A stretch of 64,000 nucleotides of DNA from an uncultured Spirochaetota bacterium. Lineage in GTDB: Bacteria > Spirochaetota > Spirochaetia > SZUA-6 > Fen-1364. The translations under genes were made by a program, and so were the position numbers. Positions 39,641 to 52,353 of the stretch are shown here, piece by piece (positions within the stretch are counted from its first letter, which is position 1; every line of letters begins with the position of its first letter). Below the pieces are notes generated by a model, which was given only the letters and a program-made list of their open reading frames with translations, ran no database searches and was not told where the DNA came from. The stretch is taken from the NCBI GenBank assembly GCA_963733835.1, contig CAVTER010000015.1:561988-625987 (forward strand), written 5' to 3'.

Positions 39641-40834
39641 ATGACCATGGCGGGGATCGACGCACGCAAGAAGAAGGTGGTGGCGGATATCATCCGGCAG
39701 CTGCACGACGGGCTTGCCGTCGAGCAGGCGAAGGAGCGCATCCTGCGCGAGGTCGGCACGCTGAGCTCGGCGGACATCACCACGATCGAGCAGTCGCTCA
39801 TCGACGAGGGGGTGTCCCCCGACGAGATCAAGAGGTTCTGCAACGTGCACGCGCTCCTTTTCGAGGCGGCCCTCGAGGAGAAGGTGGCGACCCCCGAGTC
39901 CTCGTCGCACCCGGTCAACATGCTGCGAAGGGAAAACCGCGAGATCGAAACGCTCCTTGCCGGATTCAAGGCCGCCGTCCAGGAGCTTGCCGGCCCCGGG
40001 CGCGCGCATGCGCTGGCCGCCGTGAAGAGCCGCCTCGAGAAGCTGGCAGGCGTGGATACGCACTACGCCATCAAGGAGAACGCGATCTTCCCGTACCTCG
40101 AGAAAAACGGCTTCCCGGGGCCCTCCAAGGTCATGTGGGGAAAGCACAACGAGGTGCGCGCAATGATGAAGGACGCCTCTGCCGCGCTGGCCCGCGGCGA
40201 GGCGGACCCCGCGGCGCTCACCGCGCTGGCAACCGAGATCGAGGGGATGATCTTCAAGGAGGAGAACATCCTGTTCCCCGCCGCCCAGGAGCGCATCAGC
40301 GTGAAGGAGTGGGTCGAGATCCTCAAGGCCTGCGACGAGATCGGCTACCCGTACGTGCGCGGATCCGCGCTGCACGAGGCCCTCGTCGAAACGGGGAAGC
40401 TGGAGGAGCAGGCCGCGGCCCTCGGAGCGGGCGAGGTCGTCATGCCCAGCGGCAGGCTGTCGCTGGAGGAGCTGGTGTCCGCGCTCGACACTCTGCCCAT
40501 CGACATCACCTTCGTGGACGCCAACGACCGGGTCAAGTACTTCTCGCAGTCGAAGGAGCGGATCTTCGTCCGGGCAACGTCGGTGATCGGCAGGAACGTC
40601 GAGAACTGCCACCCGCCCCAGAGCGTCCACAAGGTCAAGGCCATCGTGGATGCCTTCCGGGCCGGAACCCGCGAGCACGCCGACTTCTGGATCCGGATGC
40701 ACGGCAGGTTCGTGTACATCCGCTACTTCGCCGTGCGCGGGGCCGAGGGCAGGTACCTGGGCACCCTGGAGGTGACGCAGGACCTCACCGAGATCATGAA
40801 GCTGGAAGGGGAGCGACGGCTCCTGGACGACTGA
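39641..40834 (+). CDS. DUF438 / hemerythrin-like plus PAS-like domain protein
   Basis: 397 aa. Architecture typical of DUF438 proteins commonly encoded next to NO/O2-detoxifying flavodiiron or hcp genes. Confidence 0.55.
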   Translation: MTMAGIDARKKKVVADIIRQLHDGLAVEQAKERILREVGTLSSADITTIEQSLIDEGVSPDEIKRFCNVHALLFEAALEEKVATPESSSHPVNMLRRENREIETLLAGFKAAVQELAGPGRAHALAAVKSRLEKLAGVDTHYAIKENAIFPYLEKNGFPGPSKVMWGKHNEVRAMMKDASAALARGEADPAALTALATEIEGMIFKEENILFPAAQERISVKEWVEILKACDEIGYPYVRGSALHEALVETGKLEEQAAALGAGEVVMPSGRLSLEELVSALDTLPIDITFVDANDRVKYFSQSKERIFVRATSVIGRNVENCHPPQSVHKVKAIVDAFRAGTREHADFWIRMHGRFVYIRYFAVRGAEGRYLGTLEVTQDLTEIMKLEGERRLLDD

Positions 40835-40861
40835 CAACCGCGGGCAGGAGGAGAGACGGTC

Positions 40862-42052
40862 ATGGTGACTGAGCTGGCGAAGGACGTCTTCTGGGTCGGA
40901 GTGGTGGACTGGGGCCTGCGCCACTTCCACGGCTGGGAGCTCTCCACGCATCGGGGCTCTACCTACAACGCCTACCTGGTGAAGGACAGGAAGATCGCCG
41001 TGGTGGACACCGTGTGGGGGCCTTTTGCCGACCGCTACATCGAGAACCTCCGCGAGGTGGTGGACCCCGCGCAGATCGAGTACGTGGTGGTGAACCACGC
41101 CGAGACCGACCACTCGGGCAGCCTGCCCGCGCTCATGCGCCTGTGCCCCGAGGCGACGGTGGTCGTCTCGCCGCGGGGAAAGGACAGCATCCCCGGGCAT
41201 TACCACCAGCAGTGGAAGCTGAAGGTCGTGAAGACCGGCGACTCGATCAGCCTGGGCGAGACCGAGCTGGTGTTCGTGGAGGCGCCGATGCTGCACTGGC
41301 CCGACAGCATGTTCACCTACGTCAAGGGGCGCAGCCTCCTGCTGTCCAACGACGCCTTCGGTCAGCACTACGCCACCTCGATGCGCTTCAACGACCAGGT
41401 GGACCAGGAGGAGCTGTACGAGGAAGCGGTGAAGTACTACGCCAACATCCTCACCCCTTTCAGCGAGCTGGTGCTCAGGAAGATCGACGAGGTGGTGGGC
41501 CTCAAGCTGCCCCTGGACATGATCTGCCCCAGCCACGGCGTGATCTGGCGCAGGGATCCCCTGCAGATCGTCACCGCCTACCAGCGGTGGGCCAGGCAGG
41601 AGCCCGCGCGCTCCGCGGTCATCCTGTACGCAACGATGTGGGAAGGGACCGGACGCATGGCGGGGGCGATCGGCACGGGGCTCGCCCGGGCCGGGGTTCC
41701 CTACAAGATCTTCAACATGGGAACGACGGACAGGAACGACGCGATCAAGGAGCTGTTCAAGGCCAGGGCGGTCCTCGTGGGGTCACCGACAGTGAACAGG
41801 GGGCCCCTGGCGACGCTGATGCCCGTGCTCGAGGACATGCGGGGGCTTCGCTTCAAGAACAAGATCGGCGCGGCCTTCGGCTCCTTCGGGTGGAGCGGCG
41901 AGGCCCTGGGCCTGCTGGAGGAGCACCTGAAGGCGGCGGGCATCCCCCTCGCAGCGCCGGGGGTCAAGGCCCCCTGGCAGCCCTCCACGGCCGACCTGGC
42001 GGCGTGCGAGGCGCTGGGCGCGGCGGTGGCGAAGGAGATCCTGAAAGCCTGA
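40862..42052 (+). CDS. Flavodiiron protein (A-type flavoprotein, FprA/NorV-like without rubredoxin domain)
   Basis: N-terminal MBL-like di-iron domain (HAETDHSG) plus C-terminal flavodoxin domain (AVILYATMWEGTGRMA). Confidence 0.85.
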   Translation: MVTELAKDVFWVGVVDWGLRHFHGWELSTHRGSTYNAYLVKDRKIAVVDTVWGPFADRYIENLREVVDPAQIEYVVVNHAETDHSGSLPALMRLCPEATVVVSPRGKDSIPGHYHQQWKLKVVKTGDSISLGETELVFVEAPMLHWPDSMFTYVKGRSLLLSNDAFGQHYATSMRFNDQVDQEELYEEAVKYYANILTPFSELVLRKIDEVVGLKLPLDMICPSHGVIWRRDPLQIVTAYQRWARQEPARSAVILYATMWEGTGRMAGAIGTGLARAGVPYKIFNMGTTDRNDAIKELFKARAVLVGSPTVNRGPLATLMPVLEDMRGLRFKNKIGAAFGSFGWSGEALGLLEEHLKAAGIPLAAPGVKAPWQPSTADLAACEALGAAVAKEILKA

Positions 42053-42066
42053 GCGGGTCCGGGGCC

Positions 42067-42237
42067 TTCAGCCCTGGCGCACGCCCCTGCCGTCCTCGCC
42101 GGTGGGGGCGTCCTTTTTCCGCGGCCCCTTGTACAGCTTGACGACCCAGTAGGCAAACCACAGGAGCGAGAAAAGCAGCGGGACGCCGACGATCACGATC
42201 TTGAGAAAGGCGGGGCTCACGGACTCACAGTAGCCCA
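42067..42237 (-). CDS. Small membrane protein (56 aa), hypothetical
   Basis: Hand-translated MGYCESVSPAFLKIVIVGVPLLFSLLWFAYWVVKLYKGPRKKDAPTGEDGRGVRQG*, single TM. Below the ORF-track length cut-off. Confidence 0.3.
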
Positions 42238-42305
42238 TCGCGGGCGCGCGTTCAACCCGGCACCGCCCTTTGCCCTCCGGGCTGATCCGGCGCTACATTG
42301 TGTGC

Positions 42306-42566
42306 ATGAGGAAGATGCAGGACGCTGACGGGGCACGGGTCGGGGTGTTCGACGTGAACGGCGCCACATGCCCGTCGTGCGCCTTCACGATCGAGCGGGC
42401 GGGCCTGCGGGTACCCGGCGTCAGCGACATCCGCGTGGACGTCAACTCCCGAGAGATCCGCGTCCGCTACGACGGCAGCCCCGCGGCCCTCGACGGGGTG
42501 AAGGACATCGTCCGGCGGCTTGGCTACCTCGCCACTCTCAAGTCCAGCGGGGCTCCCGGGGCGTGA
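42306..42566 (+). CDS. Heavy-metal-associated (HMA) domain protein, CopZ-like
   Basis: GATCPSCA metal-binding loop in a ferredoxin-like approximately 70 aa fold. The ORF-track start at 42270 is TTG; ATG at 42306 preferred. Confidence 0.55.
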   Translation: MRKMQDADGARVGVFDVNGATCPSCAFTIERAGLRVPGVSDIRVDVNSREIRVRYDGSPAALDGVKDIVRRLGYLATLKSSGAPGA

Positions 42567-42612: not shown

Positions 42613-43143
42613 TTACAGCTTGTAGAGAACCCCGATGCCGTAGTTCGAGGCCCAGCCGACGTAGCCGTAATCCAGCAGGAGGAACAGCTTCGGGTTGAGC
42701 TTCCACGCGAGGCCGTTGAACGAGGCGAAACCGAAGTTGACGCCGCTCCAGCCCCAGTAGGTGCCGGTGGTCCCATAGACCCCGAGGCCGAGGGAGACGT
42801 ACACGTCGAACTCCAGCGACTTGCCGAAATTGAACCCCGTGTGAAGGCTGGCAAGCGGAGCAACGCCCCAGTCCACCCACCCACCGCCGATGAAGAGCGG
42901 GAGCTGGACCACGCCCCTGCCCATGATACCCCACTCGAAGGGCATCGGGCCGAGGTTGAACTTCCCGACCACGTACTCGGCTCCCACCCCGAGGCTCAAT
43001 CCCGAGTAGCCGTACAGGCCAACCGAGCCGTACAGGTTCACATTGCCCGGCTTGTGGAAAGCCGCGAACGGGGCATCGGCGAATGCGCCGACAGCGCCGG
43101 CCAGCAGCAGCACTGCAACCAGCACGACAACAATTCTCTTCAC
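42613..43143 (-). CDS. Small outer-membrane beta-barrel protein (OmpW/OmpA-N-like)
   Basis: AAGGAGG RBS plus GTG start. Signal peptide VKRIVVVLVAVLLLAGAVGAFA, then alternating aromatic/Gly beta-strands ending …GIGVLYKL. Confidence 0.6.
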   Translation of the reverse strand: MKRIVVVLVAVLLLAGAVGAFADAPFAAFHKPGNVNLYGSVGLYGYSGLSLGVGAEYVVGKFNLGPMPFEWGIMGRGVVQLPLFIGGGWVDWGVAPLASLHTGFNFGKSLEFDVYVSLGLGVYGTTGTYWGWSGVNFGFASFNGLAWKLNPKLFLLLDYGYVGWASNYGIGVLYKL

Positions 43144-43238
43144 AGTCGTCCTCCTTGCGTGAGTAGTCACTCGGTCAATTGTCCCCCAAACACGCGAAAA
43201 GTCAAGCGCCGGCCGCCGCGCCCGCGGTGCTCTCCCGC

Positions 43239-44206
43239 TCAATAGGTCCTGTGCAGCAGCCGGTCCGCCACCGCGTGCAGCGTCCGCCGCGCCCCGGTGT
43301 CCGGCGAGCCGGGCGATCTCGCGCAGCGACCTCTCGGTGTACGCCCTCGCGAGGCGGCGCGCGCCCTCCAGGCTCCCCCTCTCGGAGATCATCCCGACGA
43401 TGCCCGCCAGGCGCTCCGCCGTGTAGGGAGGATCGGCGAGCGCCGCGGCGAGGCTCCCGTCGTCGGCGCGCAGCCCGAGGACCACGGGGAGGGTGAAGAT
43501 GCCCTGCGCGAGGTCGGACCCCGTCGGCTTGCCCGTCTCCGCCGCCGTGCCCTCGAAGTCGAGGATGTCGTCGATGATCTGGAACCCCATGCCGAGGCTG
43601 TAGCCCAGCCTGACCAGCGTCTCCCGGACACCGGGGTCGCACCCGCTCTCGCGGGCGCCGACGTGGAAGCTCAGGGCGAAGAGCACGGCGGTCTTCCCGG
43701 CGATCGTGCGCAGGTAGCGCCGCAGGCTGGGGTCGACCCGGTAGCGGTCGCCAGCCTGGCGTATCTCGCCCGCGCAGATCTGTGCCACGAGCGCGGCCAT
43801 CGCCCGGGCAGTCCCCATGTCCGCGAACTCGGCGACGAGGGAGAAGGCGGCGGCGAACAGCCAGTCGCCCGTCAGGACAGCGGCCTTGTTGCCCGCGAGC
43901 GCGTGCAGCGTCTGGATGCCCCTGCGCACGGAGGCCTCGTCGATGATGTCGTCGTGCACGAGGGTGGCCAGGTGCAGCATCTCGACGGCCGCCGCGGCAC
44001 GACGCACGCGCCCGGATCCGGCGCGCCGAAGCTCGCGGCGAGCAGCACGAAAGCGGGCCGCAGCATCTTGCCATTCGACTCCACCAGCCGGCGCACGGCG
44101 GCCGCCACGGGGCCGTCGCCGCCTCCCGTCCTCGGGAGACGATCTCCCCGCGCACGCGCTCGAGCAGGTCCGACAGCTCCGGGTGGCCTTCCCAGAAGCT
44201 CCGCAT
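43239..44206 (-). CDS. Polyprenyl (hepta/octaprenyl) diphosphate synthase, DmkB/HepT-like; 3 frameshifts
   Basis: Both aspartate-rich motifs (LVHDDIIDEA, FQIIDDILDF). N-terminus MRSFWEGHPELSDL… and native-looking C-terminus …EIARLPDTGARRTLHAVADRLLHRTY* recovered in shifted frames. Confidence 0.75.
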
Positions 44207-44209
44207 CGG

Positions 44210-46144
44210 CTATTTCTTTTTCTTCTTCAGCGTCGGCTCGTCCACGTAGAGGTAGGTGCGCTGGGCAAGGCGCGTCCCGTTCCACCACTTCTGCAGCCAG
44301 GGCATGACCCAGTGGTCCAGCCCGAAGCCCCTGCCTGCCCCGCCGATCATGACGAGCGAGACGGCGATGTACCACAGGATCTCCTTGCCCGCCATGGCCC
44401 CGAGCAGGAACATGATGCTCAGGCCGATGGAAACGACGGCGGCGACCGCGGTGAAGAGGCCGCCCACGAGCGCGAGACCGATGAGGACCTCGGCGAGGAC
44501 GATCACGACCTGGAAGAAGAAGGGCGCCTTCGAGACCAGCGCGTCCACCAGCCAGGTGTACAGCCCGGCCGGCTGGCTCAGAAGCGCAGCCCCCGCGCCG
44601 CTTGCGGCCGCCGCGGAGGCGGCAGCCGTCGCGTCGGCAGCCTGGGCCACCGCGGCTGTGGCCGCCGCGGTCGCATCGGCGGCCTGCACCGCCGCCCCGG
44701 TGGCCGCGGCTGTCGCTTCCGCCGCCCCCTCGCCCCACCCCGCTGCCGAGGCCGAGGCAGTGCCCTCCGTGGCGATGATGAAGATCTTCCCGGGCGTCAG
44801 CCACCCCTTGGTGATCTTGCCGATGCCCTCGATCAGCCACATGACTCCGAGGAACACGCGCAGGACGGCCATCCAGTACCCGCGGGTGTTTGCAGCCGCG
44901 AGGCTGCCGAGCACGGAACGCCCGTTCTTGATGTCGAGGAACTCGTGCTTCAGGTACTCCCAGACCTGGTTGATCCCCGCAACGCCGAGGAAGTGGATCA
45001 CGTTGATCAGGTGCTTCGAGGCGATGGCAAAGATGCCCGTCAGCGGGATGCCCAGGACGTGCGCGACGCCCCAGCCGGCGCCCAGGGACACCATGTTGCC
45101 GTGGTAGCTCGAGCGGAAGGCCTTCTTCGGGGTGTCCTCGATCTCGGCGACGATGTTGTGCGCGGCGGTGTCGGCCGTCTGGACGGCGGTCTCGACGATC
45201 TGCGGCAGCATCTTCTCGCCCTCGGTGAAGCACACCACGTCCCCGACCACGTACACGTCGGGGTAGTCGGTGGTCTGCATGAACTCGTTGGTGTGCAGTC
45301 TCCCGTGCCTGCGCGCGATGGAGAGGCGCAGGCTCGAGGCGAACTTGCAGGCCTTGATCCCCGCTGTCCAGATGAATGTCTTCGTGGCGATGCTGCCCTT
45401 GCCCCCCAGCAGCACCTTGCCCGGCTCCGCTCCGGTGATCGGCGTGCCGAGGAGGAACTCCACTCCCCTCCTCTCGAGGTAGCGGCGGGCCTTCTTCTGC
45501 AGCTTCTCGGGCATGGTGGGAAGGATCTTGTCGACTGCCTCGATCACGACGATGCGGACCTCGGAGGGGTCGATGCCGTGGTCGCGGCACAGCTGCGCGC
45601 GCCAGTCCTTCAGCTCGCCGGCCAGCTCCATGCCCGTGAATCCCGCTCCCGCGATCGCGAAGGTCAGCAGCTCGGCCCGCTTCGCGGGGTCGGTCTGCTT
45701 GGAGGCCTGGCTGACCATGTCGTGGATGTGGCGGCGGATCGCCACCGCCTCGCCGAGGGACCACAGCGTGAAGGCGTTCTCCTTGATCCCGGGGATGTCG
45801 TAGAACTCCGGCTCGGCGCCCACGCCGATCACGAGGTAGTCGTAGGGGTATTCTCCCACGCTCCCGACCAGCTTACGGGCCTTGAAGTCGATGGTCGTGA
45901 TCCTGTCGGTGACGAGCGTGACCTTCTTGCCGCCGAAGATCTTGCGGAAGCTGATCTCCACGGCCCCCGGCTCCACGCGGCCACCGGCAACCTCGTGCAG
46001 CTCCGTCATGAAGGTGTGGTACGGGTTCTTGTCGACAAGGATGATCTCTATGTCACGGCGCTTCTTCAGCTTCCTGTACAGGCCCTTGACGGCCTCCACG
46101 CCGCCGTAGCCGCCGCCAAGTACAACGATGCGCGTGTGTGTCAT
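44210..46144 (-). CDS. ndh: Type-II NADH dehydrogenase (NDH-2) with about 240 aa C-terminal Ala/Thr-rich linker plus 2-3 TM extension (Ndh2-like)
   Basis: Two Rossmann motifs (VVLGGGYGG, IAGAGFTGMELAGEL). The C-terminus has the low-complexity AAEATAAATGAAVQAADATAAATAAVAQAADATAAAS segment and hydrophobic helices. Stop is 4 nt from the polyprenyl synthase start. Confidence 0.8.
   Translation of the reverse strand: MTHTRIVVLGGGYGGVEAVKGLYRKLKKRRDIEIILVDKNPYHTFMTELHEVAGGRVEPGAVEISFRKIFGGKKVTLVTDRITTIDFKARKLVGSVGEYPYDYLVIGVGAEPEFYDIPGIKENAFTLWSLGEAVAIRRHIHDMVSQASKQTDPAKRAELLTFAIAGAGFTGMELAGELKDWRAQLCRDHGIDPSEVRIVVIEAVDKILPTMPEKLQKKARRYLERRGVEFLLGTPITGAEPGKVLLGGKGSIATKTFIWTAGIKACKFASSLRLSIARRHGRLHTNEFMQTTDYPDVYVVGDVVCFTEGEKMLPQIVETAVQTADTAAHNIVAEIEDTPKKAFRSSYHGNMVSLGAGWGVAHVLGIPLTGIFAIASKHLINVIHFLGVAGINQVWEYLKHEFLDIKNGRSVLGSLAAANTRGYWMAVLRVFLGVMWLIEGIGKITKGWLTPGKIFIIATEGTASASAAGWGEGAAEATAAATGAAVQAADATAAATAAVAQAADATAAASAAAASGAGAALLSQPAGLYTWLVDALVSKAPFFFQVVIVLAEVLIGLALVGGLFTAVAAVVSIGLSIMFLLGAMAGKEILWYIAVSLVMIGGAGRGFGLDHWVMPWLQKWWNGTRLAQRTYLYVDEPTLKKKKK
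44600..44760 (-). repeat. Imperfect in-frame tandem repeats encoding an Ala/Thr-rich linker inside ndh2
   Basis: gccgccgcgg…ggcggc(c/a)tg(g/c)…accgc repeated units translate to AAVQAADATAAAT / AAVAQAADATAAAS. Confidence 0.5.
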
Positions 46145-46261: not shown

Positions 46262-47443
46262 ATGCGCCTTTTCCGCGGTTTTTGGCTCTGTCCGGCCATG
46301 TCCCTCGCCGTCTGCCTCCTCGCCGCCCCGGTCCCTGTCGCCGCGCGGGGAACCGCGGAGCAGCCGCGGTCACGGACCGAGGTCGGGCTGCTGGGCACTT
46401 CGTGCACCATCACCATCTACGGCGGGTACTCGGAAGCCGCCCTCGATGCCTCCTTCGCCCGCATCGCGCAGATCGAGCAGCGCATGACGGTGAACAGGGA
46501 GGACAGCGAGGTCGTCAGAGTGAACCGGGAAGCCGGAAAGCGTCCCGTCCAGGTGTCGGCCGACACCTTCGCGGTCATCTCCCGGGGCCTTGAGATCTCG
46601 CGCGCGGGTAACGGCGCCTTCGACATCACCGTCGGGCCGCTCGTGAAGCTCTGGGGCATCGGGACGGCCGCGGCCCGCGTCCCGTCAGCCGCCGAGATCC
46701 GCCGCGCACTCGCGCTCGTGGACTGGCGCGGCGTGACCCTGTCGCAGGCCGACTCCTCGGTGTTCCTCGAGCGGAAGGGAATGGCACTCGACCTGGGAGC
46801 GATCGCCAAGGGCTACGCGGCCGACGACGCCGTCCGCATCCTGCGGGAGCACGGGGTGAACAGCGCGCTTGTCGACCTGGGCGGCAACGTCCTCACCCTC
46901 GGCGCCAAGCCCGACCGGTCCCCCTGGAAGATCGGCGTGCAGAACCCCGAGGAGCCGCGCGGCACGCACATCGGGATCGTCGACGTCGGCGAAACGGCCG
47001 TGGTGACCTCGGGATCCTACGAGCGGTTCTTCGAAGCGGGCGGCCGGCGCTACCATCACCTCCTGGACACAACGACCGGCGCTCCCGTGGACAACGGCCT
47101 GACGGCGGTCATGATCATCTCGGCCAGCTCCACGACCGCGGACGGCTGGTCCACCCTCGCATTCGCTCTCGGCCTCGAGCGCGGTCGGGCAATGGTCGAG
47201 GGGTCGAAGGGAGAGGTGGAGGCGCTTTTCATCACGAAGGCCCGTGACGTTTTCGTGACGCCGGGGCTTCGAAAGCGCTTCCGGCTCGACAGACCCGCGC
47301 TTCACGCTCAGGGAGTGACGGGCCCCCCCGCCTGCCGTGGGGCCTGCCAGCGGCACACCCTGCGCTGCAGCGCGTCGATGAGCAGGAACAGGAGCAGCCC
47401 GGCCAGCCCGAGGGCGAGGATGCCCGCATACATGTCAGGATAG
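46262..47443 (+). CDS. apbE: ApbE-family FAD:protein FMN transferase (FmnB-like), secreted
   Basis: Signal peptide plus ApbE blocks (…LDLGAIAKGYAADDAV…, …TSGSYERFF…HHLLD…). The in-frame stop is at 47443, but the last approximately 45 codons look non-native and overlap the convergent permease. A +1 shift would end at ~47309. Confidence 0.8.
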   Translation: MRLFRGFWLCPAMSLAVCLLAAPVPVAARGTAEQPRSRTEVGLLGTSCTITIYGGYSEAALDASFARIAQIEQRMTVNREDSEVVRVNREAGKRPVQVSADTFAVISRGLEISRAGNGAFDITVGPLVKLWGIGTAAARVPSAAEIRRALALVDWRGVTLSQADSSVFLERKGMALDLGAIAKGYAADDAVRILREHGVNSALVDLGGNVLTLGAKPDRSPWKIGVQNPEEPRGTHIGIVDVGETAVVTSGSYERFFEAGGRRYHHLLDTTTGAPVDNGLTAVMIISASSTTADGWSTLAFALGLERGRAMVEGSKGEVEALFITKARDVFVTPGLRKRFRLDRPALHAQGVTGPPACRGACQRHTLRCSASMSRNRSSPASPRARMPAYMSG

Positions 47444-48093
47444 GCAAGCCGCATCCAGCTTTCGACGACGAAGTATCCCAGCCCCCGACGCGTCCCGAAA
47501 GTCTCCGCGAAGAACAGGACCGCCAGTGCCGTCCCTGTTCCCACGCGCAGGGCGGACAGCACCTGCGGCAGCACGGCCGGCCAGGTCACGAAGCGCGCAG
47601 TCTGCCATCTGTTCGCGCCCAGGGAGCGAAGCGAGACGAAATACTGTCCCGGGATGTCCCTTGCCGCGTCGCGGACCGACACCAGGACCTGGAAGAACAG
47701 CACGAGAAAGACGATCGACACTTTGGACGCGTCAGCAAGTCCGAACAGCAGCATGACGACGGGCAGGAGCGCGATCTTCGGCACGGGGTACAGGAGGTAG
47801 GTAGCGGGCGAGAGCGCCCTCCCGACTGCACGCGAACGGCCCATGACAAGACCGAGCGGTACCGCGGTCAGCAGGGCGAGGGCCAGCCCCGCGGCGATCC
47901 GGGCGAGGCTCGAAAGGGCGTGCAGGCCAAGGAGCCGGGGCGCAAGCTCGACGAAACGGAGAAGAACCGGCCAGGGGCCTGGAACCACAACCCCACCCGT
48001 GGCGACCGACAGGAGCCACCAGGCAGGAAGTAAGGAGAGAGCAACCGCAATTCCAGCCAGATTCCACTTGAATCTGTATCTTTCAGTGCTCAT
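47308..48093 (-). CDS. ABC transporter permease (NitT/TauT / SsuC family)
   Basis: 6 TM helices and EAA-like loop region. Start MSTERYRFKWN at 48093. Confidence 0.75.
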   Translation of the reverse strand: MSTERYRFKWNLAGIAVALSLLPAWWLLSVATGGVVVPGPWPVLLRFVELAPRLLGLHALSSLARIAAGLALALLTAVPLGLVMGRSRAVGRALSPATYLLYPVPKIALLPVVMLLFGLADASKVSIVFLVLFFQVLVSVRDAARDIPGQYFVSLRSLGANRWQTARFVTWPAVLPQVLSALRVGTGTALAVLFFAETFGTRRGLGYFVVESWMRLAYPDMYAGILALGLAGLLLFLLIDALQRRVCRWQAPRQAGGPVTP

Positions 48094-48838
48094 TTGGGAC
48101 AACCCTGTGCTTTTCCAGTGAACTTCGTATCTTTCTCTCAAGCTCGAAGAAATCACTTGAAGTTCTGAACCCACGCGATCCTCTCCCAGGATTTTCGAAA
48201 TGCTCCACGATCCGTGCCGGCCTGCCAGCAAGCAGGGAAATGGAGTCGCCAAGGAACGCCGCCTCCTCAATGCTGTGTGTCACGACCACGCAGCTCACGG
48301 GGCGCTCCCGTAGCAGGCCCACGAGCAGGTCCTGGAGCGTTTCCCGGGTCATCGCGTCCAGTGCCGAGAAAGGCTCGTCCAGGAGCAGCAGGTGAGGCTG
48401 AAGGGAAAGACTCCTTGCGATGGCGAGTCTCTGCTGTTCGCCCCCGCTGAGCTCGGCGGGAAAGCTCCCCGCGCGGCTGGAGAGCCCGACATGGCCGAGC
48501 AGTGCGGCTGCGGCAGCCATCCGCTCGCGCCTCCCCGCGCCCCTGATCCGCAGGCCGAGGGCGGCGTTTTCCGCCGCAGTGAACCAGGGGAAGAGACCGT
48601 ACTGCTGGTGCACCAGGCTGATCCGCGTGTCCCCCGCGGCGACTGCTGACCCATGGAGCAGGGCATCGCCCGCGTCCGGGGCCTTCAGCCCGGCGGCGAC
48701 CACCAGGAGCGTGGTCTTCCCGCATCCAGAGGGCCCGATGATGCACTCGGTACGGCCCGCGGGGACCTGGATCGAGACACCCTCGATGACCCGCCCCCTG
48801 CCGGGATAGGAGGCACAGAGGTCACGGAGTTCGAGCAT
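48083..48838 (-). CDS. ABC transporter ATP-binding protein (NitT/TauT family)
   Basis: Walker A GPSGCGKTT, signature LSGGEQQR, Walker B LLLLDEPFSALD. Confidence 0.85.
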   Translation of the reverse strand: MLELRDLCASYPGRGRVIEGVSIQVPAGRTECIIGPSGCGKTTLLVVAAGLKAPDAGDALLHGSAVAAGDTRISLVHQQYGLFPWFTAAENAALGLRIRGAGRRERMAAAAALLGHVGLSSRAGSFPAELSGGEQQRLAIARSLSLQPHLLLLDEPFSALDAMTRETLQDLLVGLLRERPVSCVVVTHSIEEAAFLGDSISLLAGRPARIVEHFENPGRGSRGFRTSSDFFELERKIRSSLEKHRVVPNEH

Positions 48839-49766
48839 TGCCGCTTACGAAGGAGCCGAGGACGATGTCGTCCCACGCCGGGAGCTTTTCGATGAGCCCC
48901 TTCTGTTTCATCCACGACGCCACGTCCGCCACGTCGGCAGCCGTCGGCACAAAAGCCCGTCGGTACCGGGGGAACCGAAGGCTCTCGCGCACGGAGGCGG
49001 GAAACTCGCATCGCAGGGCGACCGGAGTGCGAAAGGCGTCGGGCCGGGCATGCAGGTCGGCCACAGCACGGTCGTAGGCGCGGTAGAAAGCGGCGATCTC
49101 CGCCGGCTTCTCGGCGAGCGCCCTGCCCGTGAAGAGGATGACTCCCACCGTCCGGTCGAGCCCGGAAGAGTCGGCCAGGAGTCGCGCGCCCCGCTGCACG
49201 GCTGCCGTCGAAAGCGGCTCTGGGAGGCACGCTGCCTCCACCTGGCCTGCCAGCAGCATCTCCATGCGCACGGGCACCTGCACGATGGGCACGAGCTGCA
49301 CGGAGGCGGGATCGGCCCCGGCTGCCTGCAGGAGCCGCTCGGTGACGTAGAACACGATGCTCGCCTCCAGGAGCCCCGTGGGCACTTTCCGCGTCCCGAC
49401 GGCCTTCCAGCCGGCGAGATCGCCCAGCGCCGATCTCGGCGCGGCGAGCAGCCCGAAGTCCCCCTGCGACGCCGAGGTCACCATGGTGCCGGCGCTCCGG
49501 TTCCACCCCTGGATGGCGTTGATGAGGTCGGAAACCGTCCCGTCGATCGCGTTCGACTGCAGCGCGGCCTCCCTGTACATCTGGCTCTGGAACAGGGTGA
49601 GCGTCACCCGGACTCCCTCGGCCTCGAAGTACCCCCTCTCCTCGGCAGCCACGAGGGGCGCTGAGTTGAGCGCGGGCATGAGGCCGACTGCAAGGTCTGC
49701 GCGGGCGGAGGCGGCCGCGACCAGCGCGGCGAGGGAGCAGGCAAGGAGTCTTTTCACCGGGGACAC
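48822..49766 (-). CDS. ABC transporter periplasmic substrate-binding protein (NMT1/THI5-like, NitT/TauT family)
   Basis: GTG start, signal peptide, SsuA/ThiY-like fold indicators. Confidence 0.65.
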   Translation of the reverse strand: MSPVKRLLACSLAALVAAASARADLAVGLMPALNSAPLVAAEERGYFEAEGVRVTLTLFQSQMYREAALQSNAIDGTVSDLINAIQGWNRSAGTMVTSASQGDFGLLAAPRSALGDLAGWKAVGTRKVPTGLLEASIVFYVTERLLQAAGADPASVQLVPIVQVPVRMEMLLAGQVEAACLPEPLSTAAVQRGARLLADSSGLDRTVGVILFTGRALAEKPAEIAAFYRAYDRAVADLHARPDAFRTPVALRCEFPASVRESLRFPRYRRAFVPTAADVADVASWMKQKGLIEKLPAWDDIVLGSFVSGNARTP

Positions 49767-49767
49767 C

Positions 49768-50691
49768 TCATGGGCGGGGCAGGAGCCAGGCGGCGCAGTA
49801 CAGCGCGCCGTACACCAGGTGGTGAAGCATGACCAGGGGAATCAGAGAGCGGGGACGCTGCAGGTGGCGGACGACGACCAGGGTCGCCGGGACGGCCGCG
49901 GGCATCGCGGCCAGCGTGAGCCAGGGGCGCGGGAAAAGACCCGCCGCGGCCAGGACCCAGGGACCGGCATAGGCCAGCAGGAGGAGGGAGACGTACAGAC
50001 CCGCGGCGGCCCGGTAGCCGATGCGCACGCTCAGCGTCCGGATCCCGTGGCGACGGTCGGCACCGAAGTCACGGATCTCGTTCGTCAGCAGGATCAGAGA
50101 CACCAGGATGCTCACCGGGATCGAGATCCACAGGGCGGGGACCGAGAGAACCCCCGCTGTCGCGTAGTAGGAGCCCTCCACCATCAGCACGCCCATGAGG
50201 AAGAAGACAAACGCCACGCCGAGGCCGCGGCGCTTGTAGTTGAACGGCTCCCCGGTGTAGAAGTACCCGCCGACAAAACCGACCGCGCCCAGGGCGACGA
50301 GCCCCCACCCCGTCCGCCACGCGAGGAAAAGGCCGACGGGCGCCACCAGCGCGAAACAGGCCAGCCCCGACAGGAAGATGAACCACTCCAGCGCGTCCCG
50401 CTCGGCACCGAACACGGCGAGGTGCGCGATCTTGTCGTCAAGTCTCCGCTGCTTGAACTCGAAGAAGTCGTTGACCAGGTTCACGCCGGCCTGCAGGGCG
50501 ATGCCGGCCGCGAGCACGAGGACCGAGTGCAGGAGGCTGCCCCGGCCGTCCCGCCAGGCCAGCGCCACCCCCAGGAAGCACGAGAAGGCGGCGATGACCA
50601 GCGAGGCGGGCCGCAGGGCCTTCACCCACGCCCGTAACGTGCGGGCATCGAACGCTGTCCGCGCGAGGGCGGGGATGCTCGGCAGGGTCAT
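49768..50691 (-). CDS. UbiA-family prenyltransferase, MenA paralog (DmkA-like 1,4-dihydroxy-2-naphthoate polyprenyltransferase)
   Basis: 8-9 TM helices. Asp-rich prenyl-diphosphate motif (GVNLVNDFFEFKQRRLDD) and a second D-rich region. ATG verified at 50691. Confidence 0.75.
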   Translation of the reverse strand: MTLPSIPALARTAFDARTLRAWVKALRPASLVIAAFSCFLGVALAWRDGRGSLLHSVLVLAAGIALQAGVNLVNDFFEFKQRRLDDKIAHLAVFGAERDALEWFIFLSGLACFALVAPVGLFLAWRTGWGLVALGAVGFVGGYFYTGEPFNYKRRGLGVAFVFFLMGVLMVEGSYYATAGVLSVPALWISIPVSILVSLILLTNEIRDFGADRRHGIRTLSVRIGYRAAAGLYVSLLLLAYAGPWVLAAAGLFPRPWLTLAAMPAAVPATLVVVRHLQRPRSLIPLVMLHHLVYGALYCAAWLLPRP

Positions 50692-50755
50692 GACGGGAGA
50701 ACAGTAGCAGAATCGAAAGCGCGGCGCAAGAAAACCGCGACGGCCGAGGCGGGAG

Positions 50756-51392
50756 CTACCAGAGGGGGTGCGGCCTGAGCAGGGTGTACACGAGCGCGGC
50801 CCAGGGGACGGCCACGATGGCGAGAAGCGCCAGCGCCCCGGCCCACGTGGTGCGGCTGGCCAGCGCATCGTGCGGCCCCTGGTCCTCGGCCCCCGCCTGC
50901 ACCTCTTCCAGGAGCCGGTCGATGCTGCCGATCAGGTCCCTGCGCTCGACCTTCGCGCGCAACCCCATGATCCGCTGGAAGTAGAAGAGCGATCTGCCTA
51001 TCAGCCCGCCCACGCGGCCCGGGATCTGCAGGTCCTCGCGCAGGCTGAACTGGGATATCGCGATCATCCCGACCAGCGCGGTAGCCTTGGCCACGCCGTT
51101 TCGCAGCGCCGCCTCCGTGATCGGCCTGCCGGCCACGGTCAGGAGGACCCTGCCCGTCGGGACAAGGAGGTTGAAGAGCACGATCCCCACGGTGACGACG
51201 ATCGTCTGCACAGCCCGGACCCTGCGGCCCCCTGCCGCATTCAGGCCGATGAAGAACAGGATCTCCAGCGCGCGGATACCCGCGTCCTGCTGGAAGAGGA
51301 ACGCCGGCAGAAGGAGCGCTCCCGCGGCGAACAGCGCGCGGGCGGACACAGCGCCCCGCAGCAGCCCGCCGCGCGGGGGCCGCGTGCCGCTC
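50756..51392 (-). CDS. EcfT-like polytopic membrane protein (FmnA-type candidate), hypothetical
   Basis: GTG start overlapping the stop of the upstream Gx transporter (GTGA). About 212 aa with 4-5 TM helices and an EcfT-like loop (…GRPITEAALRNGVAKATALVGMIAISQFS…). Confidence 0.45.
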
Positions 51393-51960
51393 ACAGCCGC
51401 TCCCGGAGCGCGGCCAGCCACCGCGACCTGGCGCTGAACCGCTCCGCGAAGACTCCCAGGAGCGCCGCGGTCGCCGTCCCGAGGGCGAGAAACGGCGGCG
51501 CGATGAGCCACGCCCCCTCCCCGAAGATGAGGAGGCGTGCCAGCACGACCTGGGAGGCGTTGCTGAACAGGGCCCCCAGGACGCTCACTCCGAGCAGCGA
51601 GACCCGGGTCTTGAGCAGGCGTCGGGCCGCGAGCATGGCCAGGCCGCTCGCGAAGGACCCCACGGCCGAGAAGAGGAAGACGTACGAGACGAGGGTCCCG
51701 CTCACCAGGCCCTGCCCGACCACCTTCAGGAACACGACGCCCAGGACGGCCGACGCCGGCAGCAGGTCAACGGCCAGGAGGATCGGCAGGTTCGCGATGC
51801 CCACGCGCAGGAAGGGAACCGGCTTGGGAATCAGGAACTCCAGCGTGGAGAGGAACAGGCACAGTGCGCCCAGGAACGCCACGAGGTCCTGCCGGCCGGA
51901 CAGCCTGCCCGGCAGGAGGCCGACTTCTTCCGACCGGACCGCCCTACCAGGAGCTGTCAT
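51391..51960 (-). CDS. Gx transporter family protein (Pfam Hpt_synt_1 / ECF-S-like, EetB-type)
   Basis: 189 aa, 5 TM helices, motif …LEFLIPKPVPFLRVGIANLPILLAV… Overlaps the upstream NusG-II gene by 17 nt. Confidence 0.6.
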   Translation of the reverse strand: MTAPGRAVRSEEVGLLPGRLSGRQDLVAFLGALCLFLSTLEFLIPKPVPFLRVGIANLPILLAVDLLPASAVLGVVFLKVVGQGLVSGTLVSYVFLFSAVGSFASGLAMLAARRLLKTRVSLLGVSVLGALFSNASQVVLARLLIFGEGAWLIAPPFLALGTATAALLGVFAERFSARSRWLAALRERL

Positions 51961-52309
51961 CGAGCTTCTCCCCCGTTGTGCCGCGCACCCGCACGAAGAC
52001 CCTGTTCGGCAGGCAGGCGATCCACTGCCCCGGTTTCGACACGGCAGCCATGGCGACGCAGAGCTTGTCGGGGCACGGCGAGTCCACGACGCGGGCCCCG
52101 CCCGCGTCAATGACAACGATCGTGTCGCCCAGTGGACCTGCAACGGGCAGGCGGCGCTCCGCCGAGAGAGGGTATATCCATTGCTTTCCAGAGGCCTCCA
52201 CCACGACGTCGCCTGCCCGGGAGGGTCCCGCGTACGCGAACCACGCGGAGGTCCCCACCACGACGGCCGAGAGGATGATCGCGAGGTAGTCGAACAGCCG
52301 CAGCTTCAT
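51944..52309 (-). CDS. NusG-domain-II (DUF1312) single-pass membrane protein
   Basis: 121 aa. N-terminal TM helix, then a beta domain with the signature SPCPDKLCVAMAAVSKPGQWIACLPNRVFVRVRG. The longer ORF start (MPRGTLFF…) merely translates the upstream terminator hairpin. Confidence 0.7.
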   Translation of the reverse strand: MKLRLFDYLAIILSAVVVGTSAWFAYAGPSRAGDVVVEASGKQWIYPLSAERRLPVAGPLGDTIVVIDAGGARVVDSPCPDKLCVAMAAVSKPGQWIACLPNRVFVRVRGTTGEKLDDSSW

Positions 52310-52321
52310 CGGCGCATTCCC

Positions 52322-52353
52322 CGGCAAAAAAAAGAGGGTGCCGCGAGGCACCC
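52322..52353 (-). terminator. Rho-independent terminator downstream of tRNA-Val
   Basis: On the minus strand, GGGTGCC-TCGC-GGCACCC hairpin followed by T8. Confidence 0.7.

Follow-up and report, generated by a model that had tools for sequence, protein, structure and literature searches.

The 64-kb stretch of DNA analyzed here (the window), which derives from an uncultured Spirochaetota bacterium, carries on its minus strand an open reading frame (ORF) that joins a type II NADH:quinone oxidoreductase (NDH-2) to a long C-terminal membrane domain, within a locus reminiscent of flavin-based extracellular electron transfer (FLEET; EET, extracellular electron transfer). Read along the minus strand, genes for a NusG_II-domain protein, a PF07456 protein, a membrane protein with no Pfam match, a UbiA-family prenyltransferase and an NMT1-type ATP-binding cassette (ABC) transporter are followed by a divergent ApbE gene, 118 bp upstream of the NDH-2 gene, and then by the NDH-2 fusion itself and a polyprenyl synthase gene (Table 1). 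The same gene order is found in the relatives designated L001 to L004. We hold with high confidence that the protein is the Ndh2 of a FLEET-like locus and that it carries a DoxX-like membrane domain. The first two transmembrane helices (TM) of this domain are separated by a low-complexity loop with repeated heptads that resemble sites of covalent flavin attachment, and the loop may be a substrate of ApbE.

Table 1 Features of the Ndh2 gene and its surroundings (positions are those of the window; aa, amino acids; CDS, coding sequence; AF2, AlphaFold 2; pLDDT, predicted local distance difference test; GC3, third-position GC content; ECF, energy-coupling factor)
Feature	Position	Strand	Evidence
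Whole CDS, NDH-2 fused to putative DoxX-like four-helix membrane domain (FLEET-type Ndh2)	44210..46144	-	ORF, GC3, full-length homologues
Complete canonical type II NADH:quinone oxidoreductase, residues 1-394, with amphipathic C-terminal helices (371-403)	44963..46144	-	Pfam, PDB alignment, Foldseek, pLDDT
TM1, residues 423-445, YWMAVLRVFLGVMWLIEGIGKIT; invariant W424, L428, R429, G433, W436, E439	44810..44878	-	AF2 helix, invariant columns
TM1-TM2 loop, residues 446-540, predicted periplasmic	44525..44809	-	Net charges, cytoplasmic NDH-2 domain, pLDDT
Ala/Thr/Gly-rich low-complexity segment, residues ~459-520	44585..44770	-	Composition; 33-186 aa, highly variable in homologues
Three tandem 42-nt units, 14 aa each, residues ~471-513	44608..44733	-	Tandem Repeats Finder and repeat search
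Motif-like site 1, E460-G-T-A-S-A-S466	44747..44767	-	Place just after TM1 conserved (VDGxTAAS or VEGTSGAS in relatives)
Motif-like site 2, E476-A-T-A-A-A-T482	44699..44719	-	
Motif-like site 3, D490-A-T-A-A-A-T496	44657..44677	-	
Motif-like site 4, D504-A-T-A-A-A-S510	44615..44635	-	Kept in 7/8 closest relatives; EATAAAS in the eighth
TM2, TM3 and TM4, residues 541-600	44345..44524	-	Hydropathy, AF2 helices, DoxD match at residues 532-624
GGAGRGFGLD, residues 601-610, after TM4, nearly invariant	44315..44344	-	Invariant G601, G602, G604, G608, L609, D610
Basic cytoplasmic tail (predicted), residues 611-644, two short helices and KKKKK	44213..44314	-	9 K+R here; net +4.5 across homologues
Polyprenyl diphosphate synthase, DmkB-like, directly downstream of NDH-2 gene, at least 3 frameshifts	43240..44206	-	tblastn with intact L001 orthologue: pieces in three frames
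ApbE/FmnB-type flavin transferase, hydrophobic N-terminal signal or lipoprotein-like sequence	46262..47443	+	PF02424, E 9.3e-96
NMT1-type ABC transporter (NMT1/THI5-like binding protein, ABC ATPase, permease), between UbiA and ApbE	47308-49766	-	
UbiA-family prenyltransferase, DmkA-like	49768..50868	-	PF01040, E 2e-23
Membrane protein of ~200 aa, no Pfam match, directly after EetB homologue	50756-51380	-	L001 2835-3434; L002 3797-4408
EetB homologue, ECF-S-like FAD exporter of FLEET	51391..51900	-	PF07456, E 3.2e-33; function from PMC9973259
NusG_II-domain membrane protein, EetA-like	51944..52351	-	PF07009, E 1.1e-21

Architecture of the fused protein

The gene is a single intact ORF of 644 aa with an ATG start and the C-terminal end ...YLYVDEPTLKKKKK ahead of its stop codon. 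GC3 lies between 0.86 and 1.00 across all of its 50-codon blocks, the junction included, and the gene therefore constitutes one continuous coding frame with no hidden junction. The same one-frame fusion is found in all of the 120 best homologues in the protein database (575-793 aa), whose matches cover the C-terminal part and the closest of which, at 92% identity, is exactly 644 aa long; more than 100 homologues with the full architecture measure 614-793 aa. It also recurs in the 82 related loci, drawn from independent genomes and metagenomes, on which our locus comparisons are based: both parts share one ORF at every locus uncut by a contig end, except in Thermoanaerobacter thermocopriae (L059), where the NDH-2 ORF stops after 367 aa, possibly through a frameshift. 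Frame errors do occur nearby, the downstream polyprenyl synthase being split over three frames, and they lend some color to the idea that the long ORF arose by an error of assembly or annotation, such as a missed stop or an indel, that joined an NDH-2 gene to a separate membrane-protein gene. Set against the fused orthologues, the relative of identical length and the uniformly high GC3 across the junction, that idea carries a negligible probability, and an assembly fusion or missed stop around 44900, which a preliminary description of this DNA had allowed for, was rejected.

A profile of the C-terminal domain, used to scan GTDB with one genome per species, detected the domain in Spirochaetota and Clostridia only, in no fewer than 388 species, and GGAGRGFGLD was one of two conserved peptides that served as search patterns for relatives in genomes. 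Among the best 80 loci, the Spirochaetota are represented by Sphaerochaeta (including S. halotolerans), Alkalispirochaeta, Oceanispirochaeta, Sediminispirochaeta and many metagenome-assembled genomes (MAGs) of Spirochaetaceae, and the Clostridia by Fonticella tunisiensis, Thermoanaerobacter thermocopriae and MAGs of Clostridium and Clostridiaceae. The nearest genome is an uncultured Spirochaetaceae MAG (80% identity). A second profile search returned Lachnospiraceae-type fragments, and a cluster look-up gave the MAG names "Clostridiales" and "Firmicutes" only. The profile searches, which reached Fonticella, Thermoanaerobacter and Lachnospiraceae, yielded no named Listeria, Lactobacillus or Enterococcus protein.

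Judged by sequence and modeled structure, residues 1-394 are a complete cytoplasmic NDH-2, for which NADH:quinone oxidoreductase activity is predicted. Pfam identifies Pyr_redox_2 (E 4.9e-39) and Pyr_redox (E 1e-10), the dinucleotide-binding motifs GGGYGG (residues 10-15) and GAGFTG (166-171) are invariant in 48 homologues, and residues 3-394 align with residues 3-393 of the 405-aa Caldalkalibacillus thermarum NDH-2 (4nwz; E 1.4e-63). The AF2 model has a pLDDT of ~90 over this part and contains amphipathic membrane-association helices at residues 371-389 and 391-403; searched with Foldseek, it gives template modeling (TM-) scores on target of 0.95-0.96 and a root-mean-square deviation (rmsd) of 1.5 Å against the C. 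thermarum, S. aureus and B. subtilis YjlD enzymes. In the PDB, chains of canonical NDH-2 are 392-408 aa long and the match to them stops at residue 394, which bears out the contrast in length drawn by the preliminary description and assigns some 250 aa to a C-terminal membrane extension. As a separate observation, 111 of 121 homologues contain an insertion of ~30 aa in the NDH-2 domain, with three or four Cys in 86 of the 111 (e.g. CSNRLCKFATTQGTCGLKEC, zinc-knuckle-like; seen in homologues P0010, P0014, P0022, P0035 and P0049). The corresponding site in the window is at ~45270-45340 (residues 268-292), and the window protein and its nine closest relatives are without the insertion.

We read residues 396-644 as a DoxX/DoxD/HTTM-like four-helix domain fused in the same frame. 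In this part AF2 places helices at residues 423-445, 541-561, 565-581 and 588-600, and 24 diverse homologues share 30 invariant positions, with invariant residues within all four helices. TM1 resembles the DoxX TM1 signature, and the peptide that follows TM4 resembles the DoxX C-terminal signature GxGxxSLD. The Pfam matches are weak and recurrent: when 48 homologues were scanned singly, DoxD was matched in 31, DoxX in 24, MauE in 19 and HTTM in 13 (best E 3.3e-5). These families presumably belong to a single Pfam clan, made up of small membrane redox proteins with four helices, and members of the DoxX/DoxD clan are tied to quinone- or thiol-linked membrane redox reactions. On the other side of the balance, the DoxD match of the window protein itself (E 0.021, 15.2 bits) falls under the Pfam cut-off of 22.7, and none of the solved structures searched matches the domain.

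This anatomy differs from the linker and membrane anchor proposed in the preliminary description. The hydrophobic helices it had placed after the Ala/Thr-rich stretch are there, three in number, but the helix at residues 423-445, before the stretch, was overlooked. Because this conserved helix, with its invariant R429 and E439, precedes the Ala/Thr segment, the segment is the TM1-TM2 loop inside the four-helix domain, and "linker plus anchor" was rejected as a description of the protein; the 30 invariant positions, in turn, point to a role beyond anchoring.

Across homologues the segment ahead of TM1 has a net charge of +2.2 and the tail one of +4.5, whereas the loop is negative, at -5.8. Given that NDH-2 uses cytoplasmic NADH, these charges fit an N-in, loop-out, C-in topology, and by the positive-inside rule and the cytoplasmic position of the NDH-2 domain the loop probably faces the periplasm. 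The model is of low confidence there (pLDDT <50 for residues 459-518), and Ala accounts for 33 of the 64 residues within 467-530. As the preliminary description had it, the low-complexity stretch is encoded by imperfect DNA tandem repeats. Tandem Repeats Finder reports a period of 42, 2.6 copies, 75% matches and a score of 122 at 44607-44716, and an ungapped repeat search resolves three in-register 42-nt units with a mutual identity of 67-74%, which translate into the 14-aa blocks ..AAEATAAATGAAVQ / AADATAAATAAVAQ / AADATAAASAAAAS, each with one [D/E]ATAAA[T/S] heptad. The loop is the sole hypervariable part of the protein. It measures 33-186 aa in the first 120 homologues and, in keeping with the variation in length anticipated for close relatives, still ranges over 46-83 aa where overall identity is 81-92%.

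Loop heptads and neighboring genes

The repeated D-A-T-x-A-A-[S/T] heptads of the loop, which look like flavinylation sites, and the divergent ApbE gene had both escaped the preliminary description. Unbiased k-mer counting over the loops of the family returned a single recurring element (ATSAAS / DATSAAS / DATAAAS), and the only conserved element of the loop can be written D-A-x-[S/T/A]-[G/A/S]-A-[S/T], in one to six copies. Motifs were counted in 121 loops and in composition-preserving shuffles, a control that ignores shared ancestry and internal duplication and that yields counts rather than probabilities: the pattern D..[ST][GA]A[ST] occurs at 106 sites in 69 of the 121 loops (shuffles: mean 1.8, maximum 7), and the relaxed pattern D..[STA][GA]A[ST] at 171 sites in 90 loops (shuffles: mean 6.1). 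Neither pattern was found outside the loop in any part of the 121 proteins.

The heptad also persists where the rest of the loop has changed. Clostridiaceae loops that are not Ala-rich keep a single heptad (...ESTDAVTNATQVTQYYPEP...), Fonticella has QATTGAS and EATTGAS, Sphaerochaeta DAVSAAS and ETVASAS, and Alkalispirochaeta DAGSAAT; representatives of 50%-identity clusters carry DATTGAS, DGTSGAS, DAITAAT, DAAAGAS and DAVTSAS, and further relatives DATSAAS and ATSGAS. In an independent set of Lachnospiraceae-type Clostridia the element lies between TM1 and TM2 in 47 of 51 proteins, against 1.4 in shuffles, and many of its heptads are canonical (DAVSGAT, DATSGAT, DSVSGAT). The loop heptads of Ndh2 retain Asp in the lead, Ala at -1 and Ser/Thr at the end; Ser/Thr is usual at -3, and -2 is Gly, Ala or Ser. 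That the heptad is kept across two phyla in otherwise unalignable loops argues for selection on it.

The genes around Ndh2 fit the gene set of FLEET loci (PMC9888254), in particular through EetB and the quinone genes. PF07456 corresponds to EetB, an ECF-S-like exporter of flavin adenine dinucleotide (FAD) that supplies the ApbE-type FmnB in Listeria; EetB has been reassigned to FAD export, and deletion of eetA in Listeria leaves no EET phenotype (PMC9973259). In the operational definition of Meheust et al., an EET system is marked by a K03885 NADH dehydrogenase that has a transmembrane helix and lies inside a flavinylation gene cluster; the window locus fits this definition. The likeness to the EET-specific Ndh2 proposed in the preliminary description is thus upheld by the FLEET-like locus with its EetB, NusG_II, UbiA, ApbE and polyprenyl synthase genes. 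The NusG_II gene adjoins eetB, and EetA is, we presume, a NusG_II protein.

Across the 82 related loci the polyprenyl synthase lies downstream of the NDH-2 fusion in 72, a NusG_II gene is present in 31 (beside EetB) and PF07456 in 29, and 38 have ApbE no farther than 10 kb away, for the most part in divergent orientation at about -1.1 kb. Where ApbE is this close, 26 of 27 loci have the loop motif, compared with 17 of 29 where it is not (Fisher p = 0.001, uncorrected for phylogeny). More distant clusters of Firmicutes type show the orders Ndh2-polyprenyl synthase-UbiA-NusG_II-PF07456-x-ApbE or ApbE|Ndh2-NusG_II-PF07456-polyprenyl synthase. With Pfam, no FMN_bind match that would denote a PplA-like protein was obtained among the neighbors in the locus. 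A second ApbE substrate was also sought through the pattern D..[ST][GAS]A[ST] and was not found in any other coding-like frame of the window; among the related loci, just 12 of the 82 have another ORF with the strict motif.

Several neighboring features were noted in passing. The ~200-aa membrane protein after EetB, present in 25 of the 82 loci, is a candidate FmnA-like ECF-T partner of EetB. The insertion of the NMT1-type ABC transporter is shared with L001-L004 and missing from most other loci. With 393 aa the ApbE ORF is longer than its 348-aa counterpart in L001; the final ~45 residues are Arg/Ser/Pro-rich, overlap the convergent ABC permease gene (47300-47443) and may be read-through from a frame error. 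The split polyprenyl synthase (43240-44206, into 42613-43150) reads in frame into the next gene and is either a pseudogene or affected by indel errors in the assembly. That next gene (42613-43150, minus strand) encodes a Gly/Tyr/Trp-rich signal-peptide protein of ~180 aa (GVNFGFASFNGLAWKL...YGIGVLYKL), also found in L001-L004 (L001 ~11071; L002 11179-11733); it is probably an outer-membrane beta-barrel and may belong to the locus in diderm hosts. Beside the locus, at 39641-42566 on the plus strand, lie genes for a DUF438-hemerythrin-PAS protein, a flavodiiron protein (Lactamase_B/ODP and flavodoxin, identified from the corresponding genes on two related contigs) and a small protein with an HMA domain. 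They recur in the closest relatives (the P0001 contig, L001, L003 and L004) and hint at a link to the handling of oxygen or nitric oxide. Two distant Ndh2 homologues have a lipoprotein gene beside them, neither product being assigned to a family in the precomputed Pfam table: in L083 (7258-7812) SGTDAVTSAS comes straight after the lipobox in an unstructured N-terminus, and in L085 (6434-6961) TDAISGCTIS, with Cys replacing the usual Ala, lies in an FMN_bind-like C-terminus.

Possible flavinylation of the loop

ApbE moves flavin mononucleotide (FMN) from FAD onto the final Ser/Thr of the motif D-x-x-[S/T]-G-A-[S/T]. These seven residues are enough for modification, both at protein termini and, with lower efficiency, in surface loops, and the enzyme is active outside the cytoplasm (PMC12052999). 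In motif mutants, replacing Thr with Ala abolishes modification, Asp to Ala has minor effects, and about 50% of modification is left after Gly to Ala or Ala to Val (PMC12052999). The published substrate classes are FMN_bind, NqrB/RnfD, DUF2271, DUF3570, Flavodoxin_4 and FMN_red, and a validated site lies on the unstructured tail of the Lactococcus (L. lactis) FMN reductase (PMC11334425). In the searchable literature, which leaves two primary FLEET papers outside its coverage, we found no link of Ndh2 to flavinylation or to DoxX.

Taken together, the heptads, the predicted exposure of the loop and the adjoining genes suggest that the loop of Ndh2 may be flavinylated by ApbE, so that Ndh2 would be an unreported ApbE substrate. 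This is the reading that we favor; we advance it tentatively and place its chances a little short of even. Under this proposal, EetB would export FAD to a periplasmic ApbE, which would attach FMN by a phosphoester bond to the terminal Ser/Thr of the heptads, with S466, T482, T496 and S510 as candidate acceptors. Electrons would pass from NADH to the FAD of the NDH-2 domain and on to (demethyl)menaquinone, a naphthoquinone made by the products of the UbiA and polyprenyl synthase genes. At a quinol site provided by the DoxX-like bundle on the outer face, quinol would be oxidized and its electrons handed to the tethered flavin or flavins. The flexible Ala-rich loop would act as a swinging arm that brings one to several FMNs within reach of acceptors in the periplasm or of free flavin shuttles. 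Strains could come to differ in how long the loop is and how many flavin sites it has through slippage or recombination in the 42-nt repeats, and in loci lacking PplA the loop of Ndh2 would be the only flavinylation target encoded in the locus. We regard the whole chain, from FAD export to the hand-over of electrons through a flavinylated loop, as evenly balanced between true and false. In its broadest form the proposal would have ApbE modify Ndh2 and would make Ndh2 the transmembrane link that flavin-based EET still lacks: across Clostridia and Spirochaetota, a single polypeptide would take electrons from cytoplasmic NADH to the tethered FMNs, with its flavin number tuned by repeats and its loop standing in for PplA in loci that lack it; taken as one, these claims are possible and somewhat less probable than the flavinylation of the loop by itself.

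A number of observations weigh against the proposal, besides the limits of the shuffle controls mentioned above. None of the four window heptads matches the strict published ApbE motif: all keep Ala at -1 and the terminal Ser/Thr, with the leading Asp in two and Glu in place of this conserved residue in the other two, and they are otherwise degenerate, three having Ala at both -3 and -2 and the fourth, EGTASAS, Ala at -3 and Ser at -2. The [DE]-anchored heptad is missing from 23 of 121 close homologues, the family members P0214 and P0253 have almost no loop, and in about half of the loci the 10-kb flanks contain no ApbE. Motif count does not track loop length (rho 0.11, p = 0.24), so the idea that longer loops hold more motifs is unsupported. 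A 2024 structural survey placed the site of all catalogued substrate classes in or beside a folded domain (PMC11334425), and the unstructured precedents are limited to the tail of the L. lactis FMN reductase (PMC11334425) and to artificial flavin tags seven residues long (PMC12052999); the sites in the window loop are without a folded flavin-binding pocket (pLDDT <50). The likeness of the window protein to L. monocytogenes Ndh2 (Lmo2638) is one of architecture and gene context, and the covalent flavin is a prediction from sequence. Finally, electron transfer from menaquinol to FMN is thermodynamically uphill.

Many of these observations would be expected if the loop were an unmodified, flexible and compositionally biased periplasmic spacer, in a domain that only anchors Ndh2 and perhaps binds or segregates a dedicated quinone, the heptad being a by-product of slippage in Ala-rich repeats. 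The segment is indeed of low complexity, disordered, encoded by tandem repeats and hypervariable in length; the window copies deviate from the strict motif, some relatives have no motif or no loop, and ApbE is not within 10 kb at roughly half of the loci. A spacer of this kind accounts poorly for an enrichment of the heptad of ~30- to 60-fold over composition-matched shuffles, for its survival in Clostridia loops of very different composition, for its confinement to the loop, for its agreement with the three most conserved positions of the known modification motif (D, A and S/T) and for the flavin transferase and FAD exporter genes that adjoin. We judge it a serious competitor that is nonetheless rather improbable.

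The systematic departure from the canonical Gly at -2, where Ala or Ser predominates, and the conservation of a Ser/Thr-ending motif in an exposed, disordered extracytoplasmic loop would also be compatible with heptads that are functional in another way, either as sites of a different Ser/Thr modification (O-glycosylation, phosphorylation) or as docking peptides for a partner, be it ApbE, a periplasmic reductase or a protein like PplA. Against this, the neighbors conserved in the locus are a flavin transferase and an FAD exporter, with neither a glycosyltransferase nor a kinase among them, and many relatives have canonical SGAT or SGAS versions of the heptad. We consider a non-flavin function improbable, and more so than the spacer.

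Flavinylation of the loop, if true, would bear on several questions. The current FLEET model leaves open the route of electrons from the membrane quinone pool to extracytoplasmic flavoproteins. A flavinylated, outward-facing loop on the membrane domain of Ndh2 would supply this quinone-to-flavoprotein step, and the protein might itself hand electrons out. Ndh2 would represent a seventh class of ApbE substrate, the first with its sites in a disordered loop and a natural "flavin tag" in a polytopic membrane protein. Diderm spirochaetes would possess a pathway known from Gram-positive bacteria in a compact form that does without PplA, and the loop would offer a natural case in which a tandem repeat in coding DNA sets the copy number of a cofactor. 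Should the loop be unmodified, the results would still describe the domain architecture of EET-type Ndh2 and its spread beyond Firmicutes, a contribution of more modest weight.

Comparison with known systems

By gene context the protein is of a known kind, the Ndh2 of FLEET, and its first 394 residues are a canonical NDH-2. Three features are undescribed as far as we searched: the identity of the apparent "linker" as a loop, probably extracytoplasmic, of a DoxX-like domain, the flavinylation-type heptads in this loop across Clostridia and Spirochaetota, and the PplA-less versions of the system in diderm spirochaetes.

With canonical NDH-2 enzymes (4nwz, S. aureus 5na1 and B. subtilis YjlD) the protein shares residues 1-394 end to end at 30-32% identity and an rmsd of 1.5 Å, and both dinucleotide-binding motifs and the amphipathic C-terminal membrane-association helices fall within the alignment. 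Canonical enzymes are monotopic and end at about 392-408 aa, whereas the window protein continues for another 250 aa with four TM helices and a 95-aa loop. To the DoxX/DoxD-like clan (the TQO small subunit DoxD, DoxX, MauE and HTTM) the added domain is likened by its four helices, the TM1 pattern LRxxLGxxWxxEGxxK, the GxGxxxGLD motif after TM4 and weak Pfam matches that recur across homologues; it differs in being sub-threshold in Pfam in the window protein, in its fusion to NDH-2, and in a TM1-TM2 loop that the Ndh2 family has expanded to 33-186 aa of low-complexity sequence.

Like known ApbE substrates (FMN_bind proteins such as NqrC/RnfG/PplA, NqrB/RnfD, DUF2271, DUF3570, Flavodoxin_4, FMN_red and multi-flavinylated proteins; PMC8238504, PMC11334425), Ndh2 would present a predicted extracytoplasmic segment with a Ser/Thr-ending heptad and an adjoining apbE gene, and with several sites per protein, as in the multi-flavinylated proteins. 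Unlike them, it has its sites in the disordered low-complexity loop of a polytopic membrane domain and mostly Ala or Ser, not Gly, at heptad position -2, and it belongs to a protein class that is not among the published substrate classes.

The closest counterpart is the FLEET Ndh2 of Listeria monocytogenes, Lactiplantibacillus plantarum and Enterococcus (PMC9888254, PMC8238504), likewise an NDH-2 with an extra C-terminal transmembrane region and encoded with eetA/eetB, the ApbE-type fmnB, the UbiA-type dmkA and the polyprenyl synthase gene dmkB, all five of which have counterparts in the window. The window system differs from it in that the host is a diderm spirochaete and not a Gram-positive bacterium, the locus is without a PplA-like FMN-binding lipoprotein and contains an inserted NMT1-type ABC transporter, and the loop carries flavinylation-like heptads, a feature unreported for Ndh2 in the searchable literature.

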